Positions 3,545 to 47,382 of a stretch of 47,382 nt of DNA are shown piece by piece. The translations under genes were made by a program, and so were the position numbers. Under the pieces are notes generated by a model, which did not search any database, was not told the origin of the DNA, and saw nothing but the letters and a program-made list of their open reading frames with translations. Numbering within the stretch: position 1 is the first letter of the stretch; the number at the start of each line of letters is the position of its first letter. Location of the stretch: contig JARRQT010000006.1 of NCBI GenBank assembly GCA_037381445.1, positions 1-47,382 of the forward strand, given 5' to 3'. Source of the DNA: Calditrichia bacterium (GTDB lineage Bacteria; Calditrichota; Calditrichia; RBG-13-44-9).

Positions 3545-4531
3545 TTAATTGGAAATTTTCAATACGATTTTTCCGGTATTGCGATTTTCTTCCATGTATT
3601 TATGGGCTTCTGCCACCGCTTCCCAGGAAAACACCCGGTCAATAACCGGATGGAGTTGTCCTTCTGCAAACCGCGGCATCGCGTATTGAGAAAATGCCGT
3701 GGTCAGCGCTACCTTGTAATCCAGCGGCCTGTTCCGCAAGGTTGATCCCATTATTTTCAATCGCTTTTTCATGAAGATGCGCAGATCAAAGCGATCGATC
3801 TGACTTCCGCTCATCATGGACAGGAATACCAGCTTCCCATCTATTGCCAGCACCGACAAATTCTGTTCCCAATAATTTGCACCGATAAAGTCAATCACCA
3901 GATCAACTCCCCGGCCCTGCGTCTCATCCAGTACTTCTTCGGCAAAAGTCCCATTATGGTAGTTGATAGCACCGATGGCGCCCAACTTTCTGCATGCCGC
4001 TAATTTTTCTTCCGATCCCGCGGTTATGATCGGTTTTGCTCCCATCTCCCGTGCCAGTTGAATGGCGGCGCTGCCTACGCCGCTGGCTCCGGCGTGAATC
4101 AAAACATACTGGTCCGGCTGAAGGTCTCCCAAAAAGGAGAGGGCCTGATAGGCGGTCAGGAATGCTTCGGGAAGTGAGGCCGCTTCTAAGAAAGTCAGAT
4201 TTTGCGGTTTTCGCATCGCCATCTTATGGTGAATGACGGCGTATTCGGCATAACCGCCCCCGGCGATCAAGCCCAAGACCGCCTCCCCTTCTTTCCATTC
4301 CGGGCAGTTTTTCCCTGCCCTCTCAACCACTCCGGCCAAATCCAGACCAAGAATAGGACTGGCGCCCGGGGGAGGCGCATAGTGACCCTGGCGCTGCAAA
4401 AGGTCGGCGCGGTTCAGCGAGGTTGCCTTTATCCTTATCAGAAGCTCAGTATCAGAGGGCTCCGGCCTGCCTGTTTCTCCCAGGACCAATTGGTCCGTTC
4501 CTCCGGGAGATTTTACAAGAACAGCTTTCAT
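3545..4531 (-). CDS. NAD(P)H-quinone oxidoreductase, PIG3 family (MDR superfamily)
   Basis: LNRADLLQRQGHYAPPPGASPILGL, GGGYAEY, VLIHAGASGVGSAAIQ, GSTLRNR, GKIVL. Confidence 0.92.
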   Translation of the reverse strand: MKAVLVKSPGGTDQLVLGETGRPEPSDTELLIRIKATSLNRADLLQRQGHYAPPPGASPILGLDLAGVVERAGKNCPEWKEGEAVLGLIAGGGYAEYAVIHHKMAMRKPQNLTFLEAASLPEAFLTAYQALSFLGDLQPDQYVLIHAGASGVGSAAIQLAREMGAKPIITAGSEEKLAACRKLGAIGAINYHNGTFAEEVLDETQGRGVDLVIDFIGANYWEQNLSVLAIDGKLVFLSMMSGSQIDRFDLRIFMKKRLKIMGSTLRNRPLDYKVALTTAFSQYAMPRFAEGQLHPVIDRVFSWEAVAEAHKYMEENRNTGKIVLKISN

Positions 4532-8637: not shown

Positions 8638-9717
8638 CTATATTGAATTATAATAGGAGAGACTTAATCTGGTTGACAGGTTTTTCCCTGAAATCGTTTG
8701 TAAATTATATGGAAAAATTGACAATTTGTTTATTCGAATCATTGGGTAGGCGGATATTATGCCGGAAATGAATTTCATAATGTTGCCTTTTTGCCCGTTT
8801 AAATTAACATAATAGAGCGTTTCTCGGTATCCATTATGATCGATGATTTTTCCCTGCTTAAAATAGGGCAATTTGACCTGGTTTTTCTGCGCCAGTCCGG
8901 TAAGTTCCTTTTTAATGTCCTTGGGTTGGATATCAACGGAGATTTTTGAGACAGGGGATGCGATCTGCCCTGAGCTAATCGGAGTGCTAAGATCAGCATA
9001 AATTAGTTGATTCCCGTCTTCATATTTGTTTTGCACCGAAACCACATGAAAAGCAAGAGCCGGGAAAGCTTTTTTAAGATCCACGGTAAATTGCGCGATT
9101 TGATCGCGGGAATCCCCCAGCACAGTTAGATTAATTTCGGTGGGAGTCATAACGATTAATGAATAATCCGCGGAAGCTGGTTTTTTGACAAAAAAATCCT
9201 GCAATTGGGTATCCAGAAAATTATTGGAAGCAACATTGGTTTGATAGACGGGCATAATTCCCTGAGAAATAGCCGGTGATTGCGAAGTGGAAGTCTCCGA
9301 TTCAGTGCCGGGCACTGCTGGTTTTTCGGCGCCGCTTTTCATGAATTGAAAGATGAAGAAAATTATGACAAGTAGTATAGCCGCCGCTGCACCAAAGATG
9401 ATATAGATTCTTTTTTGTGATGATACCGGTCCGGGATAAAAATCCTTATTCGGAGTAATGGAGCGGTCCACTGGTCTCTCCTCGGTGCGAGCCCGGGGCG
9501 CTTCCTCAAATTCGGGTAGCTCTGTTTTTGTCTCCGGTTCCCTTTCCACATCGGCGCGCGGGAAAAATGATTCCGTTGATTCGAAACTCAAATCAATATT
9601 ATTATCTATTTGAGAAGATTTTTCTTTTTTGGTGAATTCTTCTTCAATTTGTTTGACATCTTCAGCTTCGGATGCAAACGTGACAGGTGAGTCAGACTTA
9701 AAATTTATCTTAACCAT
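8638..9717 (-). CDS. Bitopic membrane protein, putative PilN/PilO-like fusion
   Basis: N-terminal MVKINF (similar to the PilN INLLP motif), acidic linker, one TM helix (IYIIFGAAAAILLVIIFFIF), then two alpha/beta segments resembling PilN (LTVLGDSRDQIAQFTVDLK) and PilO (VNLNGQKGNIMKFISGI...IRINKLSI). Confidence 0.55.
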   Translation of the reverse strand: MVKINFKSDSPVTFASEAEDVKQIEEEFTKKEKSSQIDNNIDLSFESTESFFPRADVEREPETKTELPEFEEAPRARTEERPVDRSITPNKDFYPGPVSSQKRIYIIFGAAAAILLVIIFFIFQFMKSGAEKPAVPGTESETSTSQSPAISQGIMPVYQTNVASNNFLDTQLQDFFVKKPASADYSLIVMTPTEINLTVLGDSRDQIAQFTVDLKKAFPALAFHVVSVQNKYEDGNQLIYADLSTPISSGQIASPVSKISVDIQPKDIKKELTGLAQKNQVKLPYFKQGKIIDHNGYRETLYYVNLNGQKGNIMKFISGIISAYPMIRINKLSIFPYNLQTISGKNLSTRLSLSYYNSI

Positions 9718-9739
9718 GACCTATACCCCCCTTTTTCGA

Positions 9740-10678
9740 TTAAAAAATATTGGAAACAGACTCGATCATCTGAAAAATTTGGTCATCAGAAATATCCTGA
9801 CTCCGGTTTACTATTTGATAATTTGATCCATTTTCCGCATTGAAAATCCGAACCGGCATAGGTACTTGGGCCTTAATTAAATCTAACCATTGATTCTTAA
9901 AATGAAACCCGTAAAATAGAACTGACTGAATGTCGTAAAGCGGTTTCTGCAAAACAGGTGGATGTTTAAGCTCCTCCAACAGCACATCAAAACTGGAAAG
10001 CAATTCGCCCTCATCCAACTGTTCAATCGAGTCAAAATTTGTATTATAGGGGCGGAACATATAATTAATAAAATTATTTTTATCTGAGATAATTACATCG
10101 TATCCGCGCCGCTGCCAGCCGAGTATGAGCGTCTGACCTTCCATTCCGGTATAAATTTTCCGATAAAGTTCATCAATAGTAAAACAACTGGGTGCAATAA
10201 TCTGCACATTTAATTTAGCGGTTTCGGATATCTCATTAAAAAATTCCAGCACACTTTTTCGTATTGCCACAACCAGTAATTCTCTGTAATCCGCATTGTC
10301 TGATGCGAATTCGGGCATGTATACGTGGAAATTTTCCTGAGGTTCTTCAAGGGAATTCTCCAATTCGAAAAGAGCCAGTTCCTTATAATTCTCCTTTGGA
10401 ATTGACTGATCCACCATCACCTTTTTTATCACGGTAAATCTTCCTGGCAACGTCATCCGAACGGTTCCAGGAGAAAGCTCATATCGCTGCATTAAGCCGA
10501 TAAGTTGGTTTGCAATTTGTTTGGCAGTGGTAGATTGCTGAAAATTCTGGTAATTAATAGAAACGGGCAGTGATTCACTCACTGCCCTCTGTATATTTAT
10601 TACCTGTTCTTCAACTGCTAAATCTGTCCACGTAACAAAATCTTCCTGGAAGGAAATACTGCTGGTTTCTAATGACAT
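9740..10678 (-). CDS. PilM/GspL-like cytoplasmic actin-fold protein
   Basis: VRMTLPGRFTVIKKV, ELLVVAIRKSVLEFFNEISETAKLN and LILGW match the PilM pattern; lies between the pilin-like and PilN-like genes. Confidence 0.6.
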   Translation of the reverse strand: MSLETSSISFQEDFVTWTDLAVEEQVINIQRAVSESLPVSINYQNFQQSTTAKQIANQLIGLMQRYELSPGTVRMTLPGRFTVIKKVMVDQSIPKENYKELALFELENSLEEPQENFHVYMPEFASDNADYRELLVVAIRKSVLEFFNEISETAKLNVQIIAPSCFTIDELYRKIYTGMEGQTLILGWQRRGYDVIISDKNNFINYMFRPYNTNFDSIEQLDEGELLSSFDVLLEELKHPPVLQKPLYDIQSVLFYGFHFKNQWLDLIKAQVPMPVRIFNAENGSNYQIVNRSQDISDDQIFQMIESVSNIF

Positions 10679-10687
10679 AAAACCTCG

Positions 10688-12385
10688 CTATTTTTGTTCC
10701 CAACTTTTCTCACCATCTTTAATGTAGCCGTGATTTATGTGAGTTCTTTGGAAGATTACGTATTCGGTTTGGTTTACACCTTCCAGCGCATTCAATAAAT
10801 CCTTTTCCAGTTTTTCGGAAGCAGCCCGTAGCTCCTTGGCCTCCGCGGCATCAAAACCGGCACGCATTTGCTCGAGAATGTTGCTGGCGGGCTGGAAGGT
10901 TTCCGAAATGTTAACTACCTGACGTCGGCTTCTGGACGGCAACCTTATGGCAGCGATGGCAGAATCCAGGCTCGAAAATTTGTTGTTGAAGTAATCGATC
11001 TTTTGAGAAAGATCATTTAAATCTTTATTTTCAATTCGCGTTGCCAGTGTATCCATCGGATTGAGAACTTCCTCAATGGATGGCTTCAAAACAGATAGCA
11101 TCTTTTCCTGATCGATCAATTTCACGAAAGCCTGCAATTCATTAACGTACCGATAGAAAAATATGCTTGACATATTATCCATTTCCACAAGTAATTCCTT
11201 CACCTGCAGGAGGAGATCTGTATTTCTGCGGATCAGCTCTCTGTTTTGATTCAATGCGGCCTTTGTTTTCGTGAAAACCGTATCCAATTGGTCCATTTGG
11301 CCGTATAACTGCAGATTACTGATAGGCTGCACTGTTTCCACGAATTTCTCATGAAACCTATCCAGCAAATTGGGACATTCAATTGTCAGGTGCCTGCCTC
11401 CGGTGGTATCAATAATATAAGGTTTTTGATCGTCGGGGCAAACAAACATTTTGGGATCAAAATGAATAAGAATTGAATCGGTTTCGTTCAAAGAACTCAT
11501 CGCATATCGTTTGGTCAGCATAAAATAATCGGGTGAAAGAAACTTCTCATGCAGAGAACCCAGATTTTGGCGTTCCGAAACAAGTTGGGTTTTGTTCTGT
11601 TCAATATTGGCTGTCTGAAGCGCAGCCATACTGACATTGATCCGATCGGCGAATTTCTGCAATCTGTCCGATACACTGGATATTTTTACAATATCCGTAT
11701 TTTTTATATCACCAATCAAATTGGAAATGCTGGTAGCTTCGTTTTTCCAGAACTCATTGACATTATCGAACTCACTCTGTTCAAAATAATAAGAAATTGA
11801 ATCGGTGAAGTTAATGGCTTCCAACACTGCATTCTGCAATACGTAATCGGAAACCTTGTCACGCAAATTTCTTAAAGAATCGACAAATACTTTTGTTTTG
11901 CTGAAATTGGGAAATGCCTGGCTTGAATCAATCTTGTTCATCTCGCGCATGATCTGGTTTGACTCATCAAAAATATTCTGATATTTCCGGAAGTACCGGT
12001 CATTTCCCATCAAATCGCCGGTAATTTCATCGGTAGCCTGAGAGATATTTGAAATGTCACCGATCGCCGGAACTCCCAGGATATTGTTAAGCACCTGTTT
12101 AAAACTCTGTGTTAATGAAACAAGGGCCTGTCGTTGCTTTAGTGCCGAATCCGCCTGAACATAATTTAGCAGATTGGTCAGTGTATCTGAATAGGCTTCA
12201 TTAGTGCGGTAATAAAAGAGTTCTGCCTCATTAATTGTATTCATATTATTTCGACAGGTATCTGTTATTTGATTTTCTTCCTTCCAAATTCTATTTGGAA
12301 TGAGGATCACCGCCACTAATAACAAGGCCATCAGAACGATGAGAATTTCCAGGATGATTGAACCTTTCGAAGCTTTCGCAGCCAT
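10688..12385 (-). CDS. Very large type IV pilin-like protein with class III signal peptide
   Basis: MAAKASKG|SIILEILIVLMALLLVAVILIP has G at -1, E at +5 and a hydrophobic helix; CRNNM...ELFYY...YS pilin alpha-N; CPxxxKPY...IECP; C-terminal HGYIKDGEKSW. Confidence 0.7.
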   Translation of the reverse strand: MAAKASKGSIILEILIVLMALLLVAVILIPNRIWKEENQITDTCRNNMNTINEAELFYYRTNEAYSDTLTNLLNYVQADSALKQRQALVSLTQSFKQVLNNILGVPAIGDISNISQATDEITGDLMGNDRYFRKYQNIFDESNQIMREMNKIDSSQAFPNFSKTKVFVDSLRNLRDKVSDYVLQNAVLEAINFTDSISYYFEQSEFDNVNEFWKNEATSISNLIGDIKNTDIVKISSVSDRLQKFADRINVSMAALQTANIEQNKTQLVSERQNLGSLHEKFLSPDYFMLTKRYAMSSLNETDSILIHFDPKMFVCPDDQKPYIIDTTGGRHLTIECPNLLDRFHEKFVETVQPISNLQLYGQMDQLDTVFTKTKAALNQNRELIRRNTDLLLQVKELLVEMDNMSSIFFYRYVNELQAFVKLIDQEKMLSVLKPSIEEVLNPMDTLATRIENKDLNDLSQKIDYFNNKFSSLDSAIAAIRLPSRSRRQVVNISETFQPASNILEQMRAGFDAAEAKELRAASEKLEKDLLNALEGVNQTEYVIFQRTHINHGYIKDGEKSWEQK

Positions 12386-22326: not shown

Positions 22327-24441
22327 TTAACCATCGATACGAATTCGAATTCTGGCATCCACAATTTTGCATTTGTCTCTGTCCGGTGATACCACGAATG
22401 GATTCAGGTCCATCTCCACAATTTGCGGCCAGTCCAGAGCCAGTTGGGAAAGACGTTGAATGGTGTCCGAAACCAGCTCCAGGTTAATGCCTTTTTCACC
22501 CCGAACACCTTTTAAAACAGGGAAGCCTTTTATGCTCTCAATCATCTCCATGGCGTCCCTGTCTGTCACCGGCGCGACCCGGAAACTCACATCTTTGAAG
22601 ACTTCGATAAAAATGCCGCCCATGCCAAACATGATCATGGGGCCGTAGTTGGGATCGTTGTTCATTCCCAGGCCCACTTCCCGGCCGCCGCTCACCATTT
22701 CCTGCACCAGCACGCCGCCGATCCTGTCGCCGCTGGTTACCTTCAGCGAATTCTCCATAATCTCGTCAAAGGCATTTTCGATCTCTTTCGGGTCCCGCAG
22801 ATTCACGCGCACGCCGCCGATATCTGATTTGTGAACGATATCATCGGACTCTACCTTGAGAACAACCGGATTTCCCGATTTCTTAAAAAATTCTGATGCT
22901 TCGGAGGCCGACTGGACGACTGCACTTTCGGGCACCGGGAAGCCGTATGCCTTCAAAATTGCCTGTATTTCGCGGCTTCGCAGATACTCCCGTCCTTCCA
23001 CCGTCGCGCTCTCGAATATGTGCTTGAGGCTGCCCTGATCGACCTTATATCTGGTCACCCTGCCATTGGCCTTTTTTCGCCACTCCTGATAAGCAAGCAT
23101 GATTGAAATACTGCGGGCCGCAGACTCGGGGTAAGCATACACCGGGAGGTTCAAATCCTGGAAGATCTCCAGTCCACAGGTTTCATTCTGCTGCGCCATC
23201 AGGACAATAAATACCGGTTTCCTGCCGTTCTTTTTTAGGATGTCCCGGAAGCCTTCCGCTATCATGCGGGGAGTAGTATCAACCGGGGGACGGACAATAA
23301 TAATCATGACGGCGTCCACATTTTCATCCTTTATGACCGTTTCCAGCGAATCATGATAGGTCTGTTCGTTGGCGCTGGCAATCATATCCACCGGATTGCG
23401 GACGGACGCCTCTTCCGGTAAAAAGCTCTTCAGTTTCTCCCGGGTTTTTTCGGAAAGCGGCGCCATCTCCAGACCATAGCGTTCAATGGCATCGGTTGCC
23501 AGAATGGCCGGTCCTCCCGCATTGGTGATCACCGCCACGCGGTTTCCCGAAGGTATGGGCTGATTGGAGAATGCCAGCGAAATCTCGAACAGCTCTTCAA
23601 TGGAATCGGCGCGGATGATGCCGCACTGTTTGAACAGCGCATCCGTGGCGATGTCCGAACTGGCCAGGGCGCCGGTATGGGAAGAAGCGGCTTTTGCTCC
23701 GCTTTTGCTCCGTCCGGCTTTTAAAGCAATGACCGGCTTTTTGCGGCTCAAAGCGGAAGCGGTTTTGCGAAACCGGTCTGCATCCTCAATACTCTCCTGG
23801 TACAATGTGACCACTTTTGTATTCTCATGGGTCTGAAGATATTCCAGAAAATCCGTATCGGATAAGTCCGCTTTGTTGCCTTCGCTGACAAAGACGGAGA
23901 AACCGAGACGCAGCGCTTTGCTCATTTCCAGCACCGCCACGCCCAGTGCACCCGATTGTGACACAAAAGCGACGTTTCCCTGGTATGGTTCGGTAGGTGA
24001 AAAACTGGCATTCATGCTGCAGACCGGATCCGTATTGATAATCCCCATGCAATTCGGGCCGATCATCCGCATGCCATATTTCTTCACCACATCCAGCAGT
24101 TGTTTTTCCCGCTCTGCTCCGTCGCCGCCGACCTCACGGAATCCCGCCGTAATCATGATGATATTTTTTACGCCTTTTTTGCCGCAGCTGTTAACGGCTT
24201 CTATGGCCAGCTCTTTCCGAACCAAAATAACGACCATGTCGGGTATCTGGGGCAAATTCTCAATCCCGGCATAACACGGAATTCCGTTAATATCAGGTGC
24301 CTTGGGATTTATGGGATATATTTTTCCGGTGTAATTGTATTTGAATAGATTATCAAAAAAGACGCGCCCCAGACTGCCTTCTTTCCGGGAGGCGCCAATG
24401 ATGGCGATTGACTGAGGTTGAAAAAAGCCGTCAAGTTCCAT
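22327..24441 (-). CDS. ADP-forming acetate--CoA ligase (alpha-beta fusion)
   Basis: IAIIGAS, GPNCMG, SQSGALG, SHTGALA (phospho-His), ITNAGG, ATP-grasp HKSDIGGV, DLNP. Confidence 0.93.
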   Translation of the reverse strand: MELDGFFQPQSIAIIGASRKEGSLGRVFFDNLFKYNYTGKIYPINPKAPDINGIPCYAGIENLPQIPDMVVILVRKELAIEAVNSCGKKGVKNIIMITAGFREVGGDGAEREKQLLDVVKKYGMRMIGPNCMGIINTDPVCSMNASFSPTEPYQGNVAFVSQSGALGVAVLEMSKALRLGFSVFVSEGNKADLSDTDFLEYLQTHENTKVVTLYQESIEDADRFRKTASALSRKKPVIALKAGRSKSGAKAASSHTGALASSDIATDALFKQCGIIRADSIEELFEISLAFSNQPIPSGNRVAVITNAGGPAILATDAIERYGLEMAPLSEKTREKLKSFLPEEASVRNPVDMIASANEQTYHDSLETVIKDENVDAVMIIIVRPPVDTTPRMIAEGFRDILKKNGRKPVFIVLMAQQNETCGLEIFQDLNLPVYAYPESAARSISIMLAYQEWRKKANGRVTRYKVDQGSLKHIFESATVEGREYLRSREIQAILKAYGFPVPESAVVQSASEASEFFKKSGNPVVLKVESDDIVHKSDIGGVRVNLRDPKEIENAFDEIMENSLKVTSGDRIGGVLVQEMVSGGREVGLGMNNDPNYGPMIMFGMGGIFIEVFKDVSFRVAPVTDRDAMEMIESIKGFPVLKGVRGEKGINLELVSDTIQRLSQLALDWPQIVEMDLNPFVVSPDRDKCKIVDARIRIRIDG

Positions 24442-40070: not shown

Positions 40071-43000
40071 CTAACGAAGCAACAACATTTTTATGATCCC
40101 GCGAAATCCGTCGGCCTGAATCCGGCAAAAGTAGGTGCCGCTGGCCAGGTTTTCGGTTTTCCATTCTATCGAGTAGTAACCCGGGGCCTGGAAGGAGTCC
40201 GCCAGGCGGCAGATCTCCTCTCCAACCAGATTATATATGATCAACGTAATATGCGAGTGGTGCGGCACAGCGTATTTGATTCTTGTGGATGGATTAAAAG
40301 GATTTGGATAATTCTGGAAAAGAACATAACGAGCGGGCATCAAATTATTCTGATCTGTAACTGAGTTGGTTGGCGCTGCGGCGTAATTTTGCTCGCTTTG
40401 GTGTGAACCGACACTCAGGTAGGTCCGGGATAGCGGGGAAAATTCCCAGCCGGCTTTTTGGGGAGTTATGGACCCTGACCAGTTATATGCAACATTGGAT
40501 TCATAGTAACCATCTTCATCTGTAATCGATCCCAGGTCAGGCCCCAGGAGCGTTACGCCTTCAATGGGATTTTGATCGGCATCGAGGATATGCCCGGAAA
40601 TGGTGAAATGGATTGAAGAAGCCATATAATCCTGCCCGGACTGATCTCCGGTCACTTGCTGATATGTAATTGAGGTCGGATCGAAAGTCCAGCCGGCCAG
40701 GAGAGGAGTAATTGTTCCGGACCAATTGTAAGGCACCAAAGCGGAATAGCTGCCCGCTTCATCGGTTACTGATTCGTCCGGAAGTCCGGTCAAAATAACA
40801 TCCGGGAGTGGCGTCTTTTCTGATTCACCAACATATCCTGATATGGTCAGCCGGATGATAGAACCGGTATAGTCCTGACTGGTCTGATCTGCGGCAACAT
40901 TTGTGTAACTGCGGGATTCCGGCGAAAACTTCCAGCCGGTTCCGGAAGGTGTGACTGTGCCCGTCCATCCCTGCGGCACGCTGGCGGAATAAAACCCCTG
41001 GGAATCTGTACTTGGATTTCCGGGAAGACCATTGAGAACAATTTCGCTGAGAGGATTATCATCTGAATCCCGAATATATCCCGAGATGGCATATATCACA
41101 GCCGAAGCAATATAATCTTGTCCGGCGCGGTTTTCCCTGATCTGGCTATAGGACAGTGAGGCCGGAGAGAAAAACCAGCCCTCCTGAGAGGGCGTGACGG
41201 TTCCAGACCAGTCAAATGGAACTATGGCAAAATAGGCTCCTTCATTATCCGTGACCGGATTTCCCGGCAAGCCGTTCATCGCCACGCCGGGGCGTGGGTT
41301 TTGGTTCAGTTCCAGTACCGCGCCTGAAATGGAATATTGATTCAGTGAGCCGGTGTAGTTCTGATCGGCCTGATCTGACTTTAAATCGGTATAGGTTCGT
41401 GATTCCGGAGAGAACTGCCAGCCGGTCCTGCCGGGAATTACCGTTCCTGACCATCCCTGGGGCACATCGGAAGAATAAAATCCCCGGGAATCTGTAGACG
41501 GATTTCCGGGCAGGCCTACGAGGACAACTTCATTGATGGGATTGCTTTCAGAATCGCGGATGTATCCGGAAATTCTATATTGCACCATAGAGGCAAGGTA
41601 ATTTTGGCCAGTGTGGTTTTCCCGAACCTGCTTGTAGGTAAGTGAGTCCGGAGAAAAGAGCCAGCCTTCCCGGGAGGGTGTAACGATACCGGACCAGTCG
41701 AATGGAACCATGGCGGAGTAGATACCCTGGGCATCCGTGACCGGATTGCCCGGCAAACCGTTCATCGCCACGCCGGGGCATGGGACCTGGTTCAGCTCCA
41801 GCACTGTACCTGAAATGGAATATTGAATCACGGACCCGGCATAATTCTGGCTGATTTGATTCGATGTAATGTTTGAGTATGTGCGAGAGACGGGGGAGAA
41901 TTGCCAGCCGGCCCCTGTTGGGGTAGCAGTGCCAGACCATCCATGGGGCACTGATGCGACGTAATAACCGGCTGCATCCGTGACGGGCGAACCGGGAAGT
42001 CCGGATACCGTAATGCCGCTTATGGGGTTGCCGGTTGAAGTCTGCACATAACCGGAAATTGAATATTGAACCACAGACCCGCTATAATTCTGGTCGTTTT
42101 GGTTCGAACTAATATTTGTGTAGGATCTGGAAGCCGGAGAAAACTGCCACCCGGCTTTCACCGGTTTTACTAATCCCGACCATTCTGCATGAATGACACC
42201 CTGGTAAAAACCATTCTGGTCAGTTTCTGGTGAACCGGGTAATCCTTCCATAATAACACTTTCAAGCGGAGTACCGTCTGCTGATATAATGTAACCGGAG
42301 AGCTCCAAATCCATGGGCAGCCATGATGCATTAAAATAGATATCGGTGTTATCACTCATCAGGCTGCACCAGGCAATTCCCAGTCCCCGTAAGCCTGCCG
42401 GGGTATATTTGGGCAAAAGGGCAGGCGGATCGTCCTGGCTCAGGGAATTTTGAGAATTATTTATTTTCGAAGGTTCGGACCAGCTTGTGGGAGCAACATA
42501 CAGGGTTTTGGAGGTCAATACAGAATTATCCGTTAGATTGAGAAATGCTGCAAAAACATCCGGAGATCCATGCAACCCCTTGACCTGAGGATACCTCTCA
42601 TCACCGTCGCTGTATGCAAGTGCATTCCCGATGTGCCAGGATTTACCGGCGTTCTCTGAATACGCATAATAAATATCCCGGTCTGTTTCCCTATAGTAGT
42701 ATTCGTAGAAAACAAAAATGGTATTTTCATTTATGACTGCAGCTTCAGGGTTTCTTTCTTCCTGTCCCGAGAAAGCGATTAGTGCTAAGTTGTTCCAACT
42801 GGATCCGCGGTCCGAAGAGGACAGTACAGCAATATTATCGTCATCACCGGTATTGAATGAAAAGGCGATTACCAAATTGTCATTTGCATAAGAAATCGAG
42901 CAGTGGAGGATACCAGGCGTGTACAAGGTTCCCATTTCCTGTGATGACCATGATTTTCCACCGTTTGTACTTCGTTTGAAAATAATCTTTGCACTGGCAC

Positions 43001-43713
43001 CCTCCAGTTGATAACAGACCAAATAAATATAAGGATTATCTGGATAGTAATTATAGTCACAGGTTATTGAAGGATAAACTTGATCATTGGGTGAGAGATC
43101 AATCGCCGTAATATTTGTATTCGAAAGGTCACGGTTAAATTTGGCAAACAAAATATCATGATCTGAACCCTGCCGGTCCTCTGTCAGTACCACTCCCAGG
43201 CTGGAATCTGATATTTGTGCGATTACCGGGTGAGAAAGTGGTGATTGGGAACTTCCGATATACAGCGATGAATCCGCAGGCCAGGTCTGCCCGTGGTCAC
43301 TGGATTTCCTGATTATGACCTTGCCTGGAGTATCTGTCCCCTCCCATTCCTCTGCAGCAAGAAACATTTCGGGAGAATTTTGATATCCGGAAAATGCTGT
43401 GATAGATGGATTCTTTTCGTGATTTGGCGAGACTGCAACCGGTATATCATCATCCCACAACCAACTTGTTTTTTCCGTCCGAACAGAAGTATGGAAGTAG
43501 TAGGAAGCAAGTCTTTCCGAAATTTTTCCATTCGGGCCTTCCGCTTGCGATGTCAATAAATTTTTTTATTTCCCCTATATTTGTGGAGGGAATATTTACG
43601 GAAATTATTTCCATCGGGTTGGATTTTGGTTTTTCGGGGATTGACTGACCATAATGAGGTTGTACAAGCACCGAGAAGAATAAAACTATTGCGATAAGCA
43701 ATGAGCGTTTCAT
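40071..43713 (-). CDS. Large secreted protein: BNR/sialidase-like propeller, 8 tandem 81-aa repeats and T9SS-type C-terminal domain; frameshifted at an A7 run
   Basis: Signal peptide MKRSLLIAIVLFFSVLVQPHYG (ATG 43713, GGAG RBS) is in a different frame from the 1161-aa ORF. Asp-boxes SSDHGQTW, STNGGKSW, SSDRGSSW, SENAGKSW. C-terminal QNYPNPFNPST...LASGTYF...KMLLLR. Confidence 0.85.
40375..42305 (-). repeat. Eight tandem 243-bp (81-aa) intragenic repeats
   Basis: Recurring ISGx...GLPGxPxTDxxGxY...WSGTVTP...GWxFSPxSxxY...QxQxY; high DNA identity at 486-bp offset (e.g. 41275 vs 41761). Confidence 0.9.
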
Positions 43714-43998
43714 ATCTGTCTCCATTGAAAAAAATATAAATCTATATCAAATCTGAATGATAGAGGAAAACCGAAAAAAACAGACAATCCTGAAAAGGTG
43801 TGCTGCAATGGAGTTTTAAAAATATCCGGACAAGATAAATATAAAGAGCATTTGCTTAATTAGATCTCTGTATGCTAAGTGAGCCTCAACAGAAAACAAT
43901 TTGTTTTGTGCTGCAATTCAAATTAGAAATTATATGAAAATATAAAATATATATTCAAATACAACACTATATTAATGCATGAAGCTGAACTGAAATTG

Positions 43999-44014
43999 TG
44001 TGATTTGAGTCACA
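43999..44014. promoter_or_regulatory. CRP/FNR-family binding site
   Basis: TGTGA-TTTGAG-TCACA is an exact match to the CRP core TGTGA-N6-TCACA, in an AT-rich divergent intergenic region. Confidence 0.55.
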
Positions 44015-44630
44015 GCCCTGGTGTCTTCAAATATGTACATAGTCTATAGCTTGATTATGGCTTTAGGGAAAATATATCAGATATAAATAATATAACCATC
44101 GAAAATGGTAAGTAACATAGTATAATAATTAACAGTGATTTGTCAACAACTTGAAACTTCTGTCGGTTTGTTTGATTAAATATTTTATTAATTCTTTTGC
44201 GCTTGAGCTTGAATTTTATGTTGCCTCTTATTTATAAATATAAAATTGGTCTTCTAAATATTTTTAACATATCCAAGTTGTCAGTATCGATTTAGCTTAT
44301 TCTCCGTTTAATATTTTTATTTCATTAGACGTTTTATACTTTGATGTTCTGTTTCCTGTATAAAACGATCGGGTGATTTTTCTTTTGGTAGAATGCCTTA
44401 AAAGAAGATGATTGTCTTTTTAAATTGAATGTTTTCCGGGGATATAAGTCGGAAAATCGTTACCGCTCGTGAATGTATTTGTCAAGAAATGCCAACGATT
44501 TTGTTCCTTTTGCGGAACCTTTGCATATTGACTGCGATTCTTCAGGAAAATTTCACTTCACACGGATCGTCAAAATTTATACCCTCAGGGACGATACAGG
44601 GAGATTACATTACATTTTAGAAAATTGAAT

Positions 44631-47382
44631 ATGGCAAAAAGAAATATTGAATCCCAAAATTTTGAATTCCACCCCTCTTCATTGCTTGATATCTTATCTT
44701 GGCGTGCTTCTCACCAGTCCCATAAAATCTCTTACACTTTCCTGAATGATAGCAAAGGCGCTAAACTTTCTGTTACATATGCAGAATTGGATTTGCGGGC
44801 GCGCGCAATTGCGGCAGTTCTGCAAAAAATGAATTTGCGGGGAGAAAGAGTTCTTCTCCTCTACCCGCCTGGTTTTGATTATATAGCCGGATTTCTCGGC
44901 TGCGTGTACGCAGGTGTAATTGCGGTTCCTGCTTACCCGCCCAATCCCAGGCGCCTCGCCCGCACATTGCCGCGATTGGACGTGATTGTGAAGGATTCGC
45001 AGGCTAAAGTTGCATTAACAATAAATTCCATCCGTTCATCAATTAGACTATTTACAAAAAGTGCACAGATCTATAATTCGCTTGAAAAAATTCCTCTGCT
45101 GAGGAAGGCAATGGACAAGGTCTCTCCCGCTGACCTGAAAGTATCCGGATTGAGCCATTTTAATGCGCTTGAGTGGATTGCTACGGATGAAATTGAGGGT
45201 GATATTGCCGACAAGTGGGAAAACCCAAATGTGGGCAGGGACAATCTTGCTTTCATACAATATACTTCCGGCTCTACCGGCGAACCTAAAGGCGTCATGC
45301 TGACCCATGGTAACCTTTTATACAATCTTAGATTAATGGCAGATACTTTCATGCTTCCCGGTTGCGAAGCTGTAATTTGGCTACCGATGTACCATGACAT
45401 GGGACTAATCGGCGGCGTACTTCAGCCGATTTATTATGGAATAACCTGTCACCTGATGTCTCCGCTGACCTTTCTGCAGTGGCCGCTCCGTTGGTTGAAA
45501 GCGATCTCAGAAGTTAAGGATGCGCCGGTGGTGAGCGGGGGACCTAATTTTGCATATGATCTCTGCATCAGAAAAGTTGATCCGGACCTGCTCGAAACAT
45601 TGGATCTCTCAAACTGGAAAGTGGCGTTTTCTGGTGCGGAACCGGTCAGGGCTGAGACAATCGAAAAATTCACGGAAAAATTTAAACCCTGCGGCTTCCG
45701 GCGAGAAGCCTTCTATCCCTGTTATGGGCTCGCGGAGGCAACCTTGTTTGTCTCGGGCGGTACGGTCGAAGATGAACCCCAAGTGCGCTCATTCGAAAAA
45801 GATGCATTGAAAGAAAAACGAGTGCGGATCAATTCAGGAAAGAATCAAAACACGCTGGTTGGTTGCGGGAAAAACCTTGGGGAACAGCAGATTCTGGTTG
45901 TTCATCCCAATTCCAAAACTGTTTGTCAGCCTGACGAAATCGGTGAAATCTGGGTAAAAGGTGAAAGTATTGCAAAGGGATATTGGCAAAAACCGGAAAA
46001 ATCCCGGGAAATATTTCAGGCCTATACATCGGATACCGGGGAAGGACCTTTTCTGCGAACCGGCGATCTCGGCTTTTTTTACGGGGACCAGATTTTCATC
46101 TCAGGCCGGGCCAAAGACCTGATTATTATCAGGGGGCGGAATCATTATCCACAGGATATTGAGTTTACGGTTGAAAACAGCCATCCAGCTCTGCGGCCTG
46201 GCTGTGTTGCTGCCTTCTCTATGGAAATTGATAATGAAGAACGGCTGGTTATCGTTCAGGAAATAAGACCAGGCAATAATCACAATCTGGATGAGATTTT
46301 GAATACTGTCCTTCAAAATGTAGTCGAGACTCACGAACTGCAGCCTTATGCGATTGTGTTGATCAAAGCCCGGACGATCTCCAAAACATCCAGCGGGAAA
46401 ATACAACGCTGGGCTGCCCGGGAGGCTTTTGTGAATGGTGGCCTGGAGATTGTTGCAGAAATGAAATTTGAAGATGCCGCGCAAGATGATTTGTTGAAAA
46501 AGCAGGGCATAAGCCGCGAAGAGCCGGATCAATGGTCCGATATTAGAAATAATCCGGGCATTGAGGTTCTGAAAAAGTGGCTGGCTGCCGTTATTGCCGG
46601 TTTGATTAAAAGTGATATCCGGTCGATTTCCTACAGTAAACAGCTTCCCGGTTTCGGCCTGGACTCGCTTATGATGGTTGAGCTTAAGAATGAGATTGAA
46701 GAAAAAGCCGGGATTCATTTTCCATTGAACGATTTGTTCGAACCGCTGACGATTTCTCAAATGGCTGGGAAAATTTTGGACAAAATAGCAAACGAAAATT
46801 CCCGCCATCGGATTTCCATTGGACCTGCAAACGGTCAAAAGAATGAATATCCCCTTTCTTATGGCCAAAGGTCCCTGTGGTTTATTCATCAATTGGCGCC
46901 CCGAAGCGCCGCATATAACGAATATATAAGTGTTAAAATTTTATCCGGACTTGATGTCGAATCTCTAAAAAAATCCATTCAGATTTTAATAGACCGTCAT
47001 CCATCTCTCAGAACGACGTATCCGAGTAAAGAGAATGAGCCCTATCAGCGCGTCCGTGAACGGATAAAAGCGCCATTTGAAGTTATTGAACGATTGAATC
47101 AAACAGAAGAGCAATTCCGTGAGGAGATGATATCAGAGATCCACCGGCCATTCAATCTTGAAACCGGACCGGTTTTGCGTATCACACTGTATCACCTCCA
47201 AGCTGAAGAATATGTTTTGCTAATCGTATTTCATCATATTGCCATAGATTTATGGTCGATTTTGGTGCTTCTTGATGAACTCAACGCAATTTACCCCGCT
47301 GTTATGGCAAACGAAAGAGTCCCTTCCGCCTCGGCAAATTTGAGCTACTCGGATTTTGTCCGCTGGCAGGCGGAATATGCTT
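44631..47382 (+). CDS. Lipopeptide-type NRPS start: fatty acyl-AMP ligase, carrier domain and condensation domain (runs off window end)
   Basis: Manual translation from ATG 44631: RVLLLYPPG, AFIQYTSGSTGEPKGV, WLPMYHDMGLIG, CYGLAEATL plus FAAL insertion, LRTGDLG, KTSSGKIQR; carrier FGLDSLM (~46650-46675); C domain PLSYGQRSLWF (~46850), RHPSLRT, HHIAIDLWS (~47233). Confidence 0.93.
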   Translation, partial: MAKRNIESQNFEFHPSSLLDILSWRASHQSHKISYTFLNDSKGAKLSVTYAELDLRARAIAAVLQKMNLRGERVLLLYPPGFDYIAGFLGCVYAGVIAVPAYPPNPRRLARTLPRLDVIVKDSQAKVALTINSIRSSIRLFTKSAQIYNSLEKIPLLRKAMDKVSPADLKVSGLSHFNALEWIATDEIEGDIADKWENPNVGRDNLAFIQYTSGSTGEPKGVMLTHGNLLYNLRLMADTFMLPGCEAVIWLPMYHDMGLIGGVLQPIYYGITCHLMSPLTFLQWPLRWLKAISEVKDAPVVSGGPNFAYDLCIRKVDPDLLETLDLSNWKVAFSGAEPVRAETIEKFTEKFKPCGFRREAFYPCYGLAEATLFVSGGTVEDEPQVRSFEKDALKEKRVRINSGKNQNTLVGCGKNLGEQQILVVHPNSKTVCQPDEIGEIWVKGESIAKGYWQKPEKSREIFQAYTSDTGEGPFLRTGDLGFFYGDQIFISGRAKDLIIIRGRNHYPQDIEFTVENSHPALRPGCVAAFSMEIDNEERLVIVQEIRPGNNHNLDEILNTVLQNVVETHELQPYAIVLIKARTISKTSSGKIQRWAAREAFVNGGLEIVAEMKFEDAAQDDLLKKQGISREEPDQWSDIRNNPGIEVLKKWLAAVIAGLIKSDIRSISYSKQLPGFGLDSLMMVELKNEIEEKAGIHFPLNDLFEPLTISQMAGKILDKIANENSRHRISIGPANGQKNEYPLSYGQRSLWFIHQLAPRSAAYNEYISVKILSGLDVESLKKSIQILIDRHPSLRTTYPSKENEPYQRVRERIKAPFEVIERLNQTEEQFREEMISEIHRPFNLETGPVLRITLYHLQAEEYVLLIVFHHIAIDLWSILVLLDELNAIYPAVMANERVPSASANLSYSDFVRWQAEYA

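Follow-up and report, generated by a model that had tools for sequence, protein, structure and literature searches.

The window analyzed here comprises positions 1-47382 (47,382 nucleotides) of a 61,313-nt contig, C6, from the metagenome-assembled genome (MAG) of a Calditrichia bacterium (GCA_037381445.1; ~5.1 Mb in 401 contigs, completeness 91.9%, contamination 2.2%). Its right end hosts the beginning of a nonribosomal peptide synthetase (NRPS) gene, referred to as gene 1, which encodes a FAAL domain (fatty acyl-AMP ligase), an acyl carrier protein (ACP) domain, and a condensation (C) domain in a row. The open reading frame (ORF) listing of the window holds it as a forward-strand ORF of 919 codons (44625..47381), open at its 3' end. 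An in-frame TAG stop at 44619-44621 precedes it, with TTG at 44625 and ATG at 44631 as candidate starts. A preceding sequence-only reading of this DNA had proposed an open frame of more than 900 codons with a FAAL-ACP-C arrangement; both were recovered, with the quoted motifs at the places where it had put them. The three domains were assigned by Pfam with E-values (Table 1) at which chance is of no concern. Past the window, the gene continues to contig position 50081 and in its complete form encodes a FAAL-ACP-C-A-T protein of 1818 aa, A and T denoting adenylation and thiolation domains.

Table 1. Features at the right end of the window, with positions on the 47,382-nt stretch.
Feature	Position	Strand	Basis
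NRPS gene 1, first 919 codons	44625..47382	+	FAAL-ACP-C by Pfam; C domain cut by window end
FAAL, N-terminal adenylate-forming domain	44703..45986	+	Pfam AMP-binding, residues 27-454, E 6e-64
Clade-specific basic insert, residues 140-182, ~30 extra aa	45042..45170	+	Alignment, FAAL tree, predicted model
FAAL-specific insertion (FSI), residues 378-400	45756..45824	+	Gap-free alignment to the same segment of solved FAAL 7r7e
FAAL, C-terminal subdomain	46116..46454	+	Pfam PF23024, residues 498-610
Acyl carrier domain	46578..46769	+	Pfam PP-binding, residues 652-715, E 6e-9
First C domain, N-terminal part, putative acyl-ACP donor type	46839..47382	+	Pfam Condensation, residues 739-918, E 1e-39
A+T-rich non-coding stretch, presumed promoter region and left edge of the cluster	43726..44624	.	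Short ORFs only; GC 0.38-0.42

The N-terminal part of the protein shows the ANL adenylate-forming fold with the core motifs A3 (TSGSTGEPK, 45264-45290), A5 (YGLAEAT, 45723-45743), A7, A8 (GRAKDLII, 46104-46127, starting just upstream of the PF23024 match), and A10, the lysine of which lies in SSGKIQR (46389-46409). A5 is followed by the FSI, located after this motif and regarded as the defining FAAL feature in the available text of PMC12820801 and PMC11837247; the Pfam AMP-binding match covers 428 residues on 381 model positions. FSI, FAAL-specific helix, ACP loading, and FAAL-type initiation are topics of the accessible parts of PMC11837247, PMC12820801, PMC8460268, and a bioRxiv preprint. 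Both the FAAL motifs and the FSI announced by the sequence-only reading could thus be located. The top phmmer matches are the solved FAALs 7r7e-g (E about 1e-172 to 5e-172), and a Foldseek search with the AlphaFold model of the domain (pLDDT 84.7) listed exclusively FAAL or FadD32/FadD23 structures on ranks 1-33. The closest solved structure is the FAAL of the Synechococcus olefin synthase (PDB 7r7e/f/g; 46% identity, Foldseek E 4e-72). It, too, opens an assembly line and is joined to an ACP, but feeds a polyketide synthase (PKS) instead of an NRPS and lacks an insert between motifs A2 and A3 that is present here.

Within the carrier domain, the phosphopantetheine attachment site is Ser681 of FGLDS (residues 677-681; serine codon 46665-46667), invariant in the alignment and matching the GLDS carrier of the sequence-only reading. 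What speaks for a predicted transfer of the acyl-AMP to holo-ACP, and not to CoA, is the fused ACP with this invariant serine. The subsequent C domain is represented in the window by Condensation model positions 2-185 of 456 and runs on to contig position 48167. Its motif HHIAIDLWS occupies residues 870-878 (nt 47232-47258; HHIAID 870-875). Comparison with homologous assembly lines revealed HHxxxD(L/F/M/I)W(S/T) in 24 of 25 first C domains, the query included, irrespective of whether they directly follow the FAAL-ACP or the ACP of a PKS module; the single exception, P0035, carries G. The second C domains of the same proteins show HHxxxDGWS in eight of the ten cases with a readable motif. In the C-domain tree, first C domains form one clade of 23 members (SH-aLRT 98) apart from the second C domains, and within it the query adjoins those of three FAAL-ACP-C-A-T relatives (98), two of them from NCBI-named Ignavibacteria. 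Location directly after an acyl carrier, the HHxxxD motif, and grouping with first C domains are the features of an acyl-ACP-accepting (lipoinitiation) C domain. The motif noted in the sequence-only reading is present, yet it is no variant: judged from these alignments, C domains predicted to take an acyl-ACP donor regularly carry HHxxxD(L/F/M/I)W.

A similar picture emerged for the extra segment of ~30 aa seen before motif A3 (residues 141-172, nt 45045-45140, as quoted). Relative to the nearest solved FAAL it is real, since residues 141-182 of the query face chain residues 128-139 of 7r7e. The insert contains the conserved motif S-L-E-K-x-P-L/F-L/F-R/K-K with Pro157 invariant in a six-sequence alignment, begins amphipathically, and carries seven K/R versus three D/E. 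In the AlphaFold model it forms a helical excursion (helices 134-154, 157-163, 169-175, and 177-180; local pLDDT 56-71). Among 96 FAALs compared, 15 share the ~30-aa insert. Besides the query, these come from six Calditrichota genomes belonging to its family, order, or class, from three named Calditrichota MAGs, and from one 'Cytophagia' MAG, the remaining four being further proteins. Three more hold a 19-aa form, two of these being NCBI-named Ignavibacteria, and the insert is absent from the remaining 78. In a tree calculated without the insert columns, all 18 insert-bearing FAALs fall into a single clade (SH-aLRT 100) made up of Calditrichota, the three relatives with the short form, the 'Cytophagia' MAG, and others, in which the query stands with a genome of its own family and P0005 (82). 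The other 78, of cyanobacterial, myxobacterial, acidobacterial, planctomycete, and other origin, are all located on the opposite side. Present as claimed, the segment is thus no oddity but the norm of its clade, and on phylogenetic grounds we regard it as a shared derived character, the mark of an FCB-group (Calditrichota/Ignavibacteria) FAAL clade.

The sequence-only reading considered FAAL-ACP-C as the start of a lipopeptide cluster, and the DNA beyond the window bears out that a large NRPS cluster begins here. Modules of the A-T type, the possible lack of which in the downstream sequence was looked into, are present, followed by epimerization (E) domains and a thioesterase (TE). Gene 2 encodes C-A-T-C-A-T-E, and gene 3 begins with C-A-T-C before it runs off C6. 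Three further contigs (C218, C184, and C181) continue the cluster. Together, the four contigs host 16 Condensation matches in Pfam, 12 of the 21 AMP-binding, and 12 of the 14 PP-binding matches. Apart from the FAAL and the ACP, there are 11 A domains for amino acids and 11 T domains, along with 14 domains of the condensation family and one TE; as assembled, this amounts to 11 C, 11 A, 11 T, three E, and one TE. The single strong TE match lies on C181 and is followed by an MFS_3 transporter gene and an MbtH gene, 35 nt after which the right flank stops. Two genes of the phosphopantetheinyl transferase (PPTase) family are found elsewhere in the genome. A tree of the condensation-family domains of the cluster separates three E domains (100/100), three post-E C domains (100/99), and seven elongation C domains, the first C domain being sister to the elongation group (96/93).

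The order of the contigs follows from exact 119-nt end overlaps, which connect C6 to C218, C218 to the reverse strand of C181, and C184 to the reverse strand of C181. A direct order of C218 and C184 was rejected: the A9-A10 region is encoded at the end of C218 and again where C184 starts, so that the two cannot abut, and the start of C184 matches inside C181 (C184:1-244 is 98.4% identical to C181:7390-7147). The sole path using every contig would lead from C6 via C218 into C181 (10552 to ~7391), then through C184 and once more into C181 (10552 to 1). On this path, a 3.1-kb T-C-A(Asn) segment would be a collapsed repeat that is passed through two times, giving 12 modules compared with 11 as assembled. 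With C-A-T modules and a terminal release domain, the locus has the make-up of a complete modular NRPS cluster, one link of which we infer. Two other contigs with AMP-binding domains, C391 and C373, were rejected as cluster parts, having no DNA in common with the four NRPS contigs. C373 is filled over its 2.5 kb by a separate 777-aa A-T open frame (129-2459, +), and the AMP-binding frame of C391 contains one internal TAG.

Specificity codes of the A domains were read at the GrsA positions, picked via motif anchors based on the GrsA numbering; that three or four published codes were recovered exactly suggests that these anchors are right. Two modules carry DAWTIAAVCK and would accept Phe (GrsA Phe code DAWTIAAICK, PMC4831472; DAWTIAAV tied to Phe, PMC10744761), and one carries DVGEIGSIDK, the Orn code (PMC3992020). 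The repeated module has DATKVGEVG, listed for Asn in Table 2 of PMC3547906, and is predicted to yield the D-configured residue. Module 3 (DAQDLGMVDK) is one letter off the Glu/Gln code DAQDLGVVDK (PMC12283262) and is predicted to be Glu/Gln-like, likewise D-configured.

Taken together, we consider gene 1, with a probability of roughly 80%, to encode the loading end of a nonribosomal lipopeptide assembly line that would make a fatty-acid-capped peptide of about twelve residues. With domain order, motifs, cluster continuity, and clade memberships as the observed frame, and family knowledge supplying the chemistry of each step, the FAAL would activate a free fatty acid as acyl-AMP and, as is usual for FAALs, hand the acyl group over to the phosphopantetheine arm of the ACP fused to it, not to CoA. 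The first C domain, of the acyl-ACP-donor class, would then join the acyl chain to the amino acid held on the A-T part of module 1 in the same protein. Ten or eleven further modules would extend the chain, three of them with an E domain, each followed by a D-specific C domain, before the terminal TE would release the product, probably as a ring, for export by the MFS_3 pump. The best NCBIfam match of the window protein, the acyl-ligase-primed NRPS model PRK05691, is in keeping with this reading. Several points weigh against this assignment. A short run of N lies just past the window end inside the C domain, although the frame is kept across it. The curated cut-offs of the NCBIfam FAAL models are not reached (PRK05850, 426.7 bits vs 775; FadD32, 410.6 vs 975); both are subfamily models, and the A2-A3 insert divides the match into two parts. 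Five of the 11 A-domain codes (DAENIGAITK, DGALIGAVAK, DAGVVAGVGK, DGAVVGIVGK, and DGALVGAVAK) had no match in the literature searched. The connection from the interior of C181 to the start of C184 is inferred and not assembled, leaving a module count of 11 or 12. Finally, C218 (near 590-620) and C181 (near 7391) each contain a frame break as assembled.

Comparison with related systems points out what is particular to this locus. The same domain order, FAAL-ACP-C-A-T, is found in P0018 and P0050, both NCBI-named Ignavibacteria MAGs, and in P0085, with 47-48% identity over the whole FAAL-ACP-C query and, for P0050, an almost identical length (1817 vs 1818 aa). Their first C domains, with HHIAVDLWS, are the nearest relatives of the query C, whereas their insert is the shorter 19-aa form. 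Hybrid starts in five Calditrichota genomes (G003, G017, G023, G038, and G040) belong to the same FAAL clade, share the ~30-aa insert, and show 47-54% identity over FAAL-ACP; their first C domains likewise read HHxxxD(M/I)W. In G017, G038, and G040, however, a complete reducing PKS module (KS-AT-DH-ER-KR-ACP) follows the ACP, and only then C-A-T, whereas here the ACP is fused directly to C. A PKS module follows the ACP in G003 and G023 as well, but the sequence breaks off after KS-AT in the former and after KS in the latter. The post-PKS C domains of Calditrichota form a clade separate from the first C domain of the query. Loss of the PKS module or an exchange within the FCB group are possible origins of the present arrangement. 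A lone single-module FAAL-ACP-C-A-T gene of 1816 aa in a further Calditrichia genome, G054 (L113, G054:C4, 4343-9790 (-)), shows 40% identity, HHIICDMWS, and a long pre-A3 insert of its own. It is followed by non-NRPS genes, two ORFs of which we take to be branched-chain amino-acid genes, and may encode an N-acyl amino acid synthase. Daptomycin-type lipoinitiation, as described in the available text of PMC9113097, relies on the same chemistry, from FAAL to ACP to condensation with the first amino acid, but with FAAL, ACP, and a specialized C domain on separate proteins acting in trans instead of being fused in one polypeptide.

Among the alternatives, the one surviving best, albeit improbable, is that the acyl chain serves as a transient handle that is removed after assembly, so that the mature product would be no lipopeptide. 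In the biosynthesis of pyoverdine (PvdL/PvdQ) and saframycin, an acyl chain is loaded, carried through the assembly, and then cut off. The best NCBIfam match of the window protein is PRK05691, an NRPS/PKS subfamily model (residues 16-918 aligned, 704 bits), which presumably stands for PvdL of pyoverdine, a compound from which the acyl chain is removed. Acyl-ligase-primed NRPSs of this type share the N-terminal ligase-carrier-C-A-T order with gene 1, and the N-terminus of the model matches FAAL-carrier-C, the curated cut-off for the whole 4334-position model not being reached by the window protein. The genome moreover contains a single gene of the penicillin-amidase family (Ntn hydrolases; C273:2716-4794, +), running to the contig end. 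This gene, however, resides on a separate 4.8-kb contig without overlap to the NRPS contigs, and no acylase or peptidase is present in the cluster flanks as assembled, where a T9SS-sorted protein (type IX secretion system) is encoded to the left and the MFS and MbtH genes lie to the right. As the right flank ends 35 nt past MbtH, a linked gene could be missing.

Slightly less probable still is a decaying pseudogene array that makes no product. The NRPS genes as assembled contain three frame breaks: near 570-620 of C218, a simple shift or short loss; near 4030 of C184, with ~43 residues lost including motif A5; and near 7391 of C181, with ~23 residues lost. Logan contigs of four public runs were compared with C184. 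A salt marsh metagenome, which contains 93% of the sampled words and may be the source sample, has 128 extra letters between positions 4029 and 4030, and two runs from one sediment sample of another study hold 130 letters between 4027 and 4030. The additional 128 nt restore the frame as well as the lost residues; thus, the C184 break is a 128-nt assembly deletion and the cluster looks functional. The break on C181 resembles such an error: it lies exactly at the repeat edge where C184 begins, which is typical of a mis-join. Further frame breaks in this assembly may have arisen in a like manner. The two sediment runs carry the same NRPS genes, about 91-97% identical in the longer aligned pieces and with a compensated pair of 1-nt indels at C184 3607-3612, and the cluster is thus kept in a second population. 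Furthermore, all catalytic motifs seen are intact. We therefore prefer the lipopeptide assembly line over a decayed array and regard the cluster as probably intact and functional, as far as its sequence indicates. A search of public runs with the cluster returned no RNA run among those listed.

The third alternative is the recent acquisition from a classical lipopeptide producer among the cyanobacteria or myxobacteria, in line with the horizontal transfer considered in the sequence-only reading. That the genome itself is 'Calditrichota-like', as proposed there, was corroborated by the ADP-forming acetyl-CoA synthetase of the window (22327-24441, -), the relatives of which place the genome in Calditrichia: after the self-hit they are 56-77% identical, all four with an organism name are 'Calditrichia bacterium' (73, 70, 58, and 57%), and another at 63% is labelled only 'bacterium'. 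For gene 1, a protein database search limited to 999-3182 aa returned best matches with 44-48% identity across the complete FAAL-ACP-C and 53% where 78% of it was covered; the closest relatives reach at most 54% over the matched stretch and 62% over the FAAL domain alone. The FAAL loci with a name and 46-53% identity belong to MAGs of Calditrichaceae or Calditrichota. Of 86 Calditrichota genomes, own included, 35 contain a FAAL homologue at E <= 1e-150, and all but one of these homologues, that of G054, match only FAAL-ACP. With the own genome excluded, the distribution by family is 1/16 (own family), 3/4 (f2), 0/16 (f3, belonging to the same order), 0/10 (f4), 8/10 (f5), 19/26 (f6), 1/1 (f7), and 2/2 (f8). 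The sparse occurrence in the own family and in f3, together with full-length FAAL-ACP-C matches at 44-46% that include Acidobacteriota and cyanobacteria, could be read as signs of acquisition. The position of the query in the 18-member FAAL clade next to a same-family genome and opposite to the 78 others, the insert as derived character of that clade, the grouping of the first C domain with those of the three relatives, the carriage of the FAAL by 35 genomes of the phylum, a cluster GC of 0.44-0.50 (genome, 0.477, sd 0.028), and tetranucleotide distances ranking at 0.19-0.94 among 150 random genome chunks make such an origin highly improbable and leave the proposal of horizontal acquisition unsupported. 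On phylogeny and composition, the gene appears native to the FCB-group FAAL lineage.

Upstream of gene 1, the window encodes a glycogen synthase, glycosyltransferases, PcrB, a sigma-54 two-component pair, and a T9SS-sorted surface protein. As all of these represent housekeeping genes, the left edge of the cluster is set at 44.6 kb. An Rfam scan upstream of the NRPS gene gave mt-tmRNA at 43547-43617 as its sole match; with 22 bits, far under the gathering score of 65, it was rejected as chance. The T9SS-sorted BNR/CarboxypepD_reg protein (40071-43556, -; 1161 aa) is itself devoid of a signal peptide. A 91-aa ORF (43450-43725, -) with a signal-peptide-like start, MKRSLLIAIVLFF, overlaps its start in another frame, and the two are probably one gene split by a frameshift or assembly indel near 43450-43556. 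At a distance from the cluster, three successive ORFs of 359, 312, and 565 aa (8638-12385, -) had no Pfam match at E <= 1e-5 and sit in the part of the window with the lowest GC (0.375-0.41).

With respect to the role of the A2-A3 insert, its location in subdomain A is of relevance, given that the variable loops of this subdomain form the alternative phosphopantetheine pocket of FAALs according to the accessible part of PMC8460268. A conceivable role of the insert is thus to guide how the fused ACP docks, or else to keep the enzyme close to the membrane as the place at which free fatty acids arise. That the insert is a functional add-on of the FCB-group FAAL lineage and, jointly, that the product is, in view of the five A-domain codes lacking a published counterpart, a structurally new D-amino-acid-containing lipododecapeptide is a tentative proposal, with the odds rather against both holding at once.

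By its kind, the cluster is an ordinary one, as FAAL-primed lipopeptide and hybrid chemistry is already known; no product or characterized match was found for it. Neither the protein database nor the literature searched contained a close characterized relative, and the literature search yielded no characterized natural product from Calditrichota. With relatives at 44-54% identity, this is in line with the expectation of the sequence-only reading that the cluster is probably uncharacterized. Its view of an under-explored lineage applies insofar as the phylum is little studied, but NRPS clusters of Calditrichota have already been reported in metagenome surveys: they were counted in PMC7960500 (citing a Shark Bay mat study), described from cold seeps in PMC11051675, and found at Arctic vents, where they are transcribed, in PMC13635244, as far as the available text of these surveys goes. 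These surveys only count clusters of the phylum.

Beyond this locus, the hydrophobic residue after HHxxxD may offer an easy way to recognize lipoinitiation C domains from sequence. Neither this rule nor the one on the A2-A3 insert was found stated in the accessible portions of the literature consulted on FAAL initiation. The deletion on C184 is in addition a warning: in this MAG assembly, more than 100 nt are lost without notice from repeated NRPS genes, which mimics pseudogenes. Being large, apparently intact, and present in two independent sediment-type samples, the cluster offers a sensible way into the chemistry of this phylum and is ready for heterologous expression.

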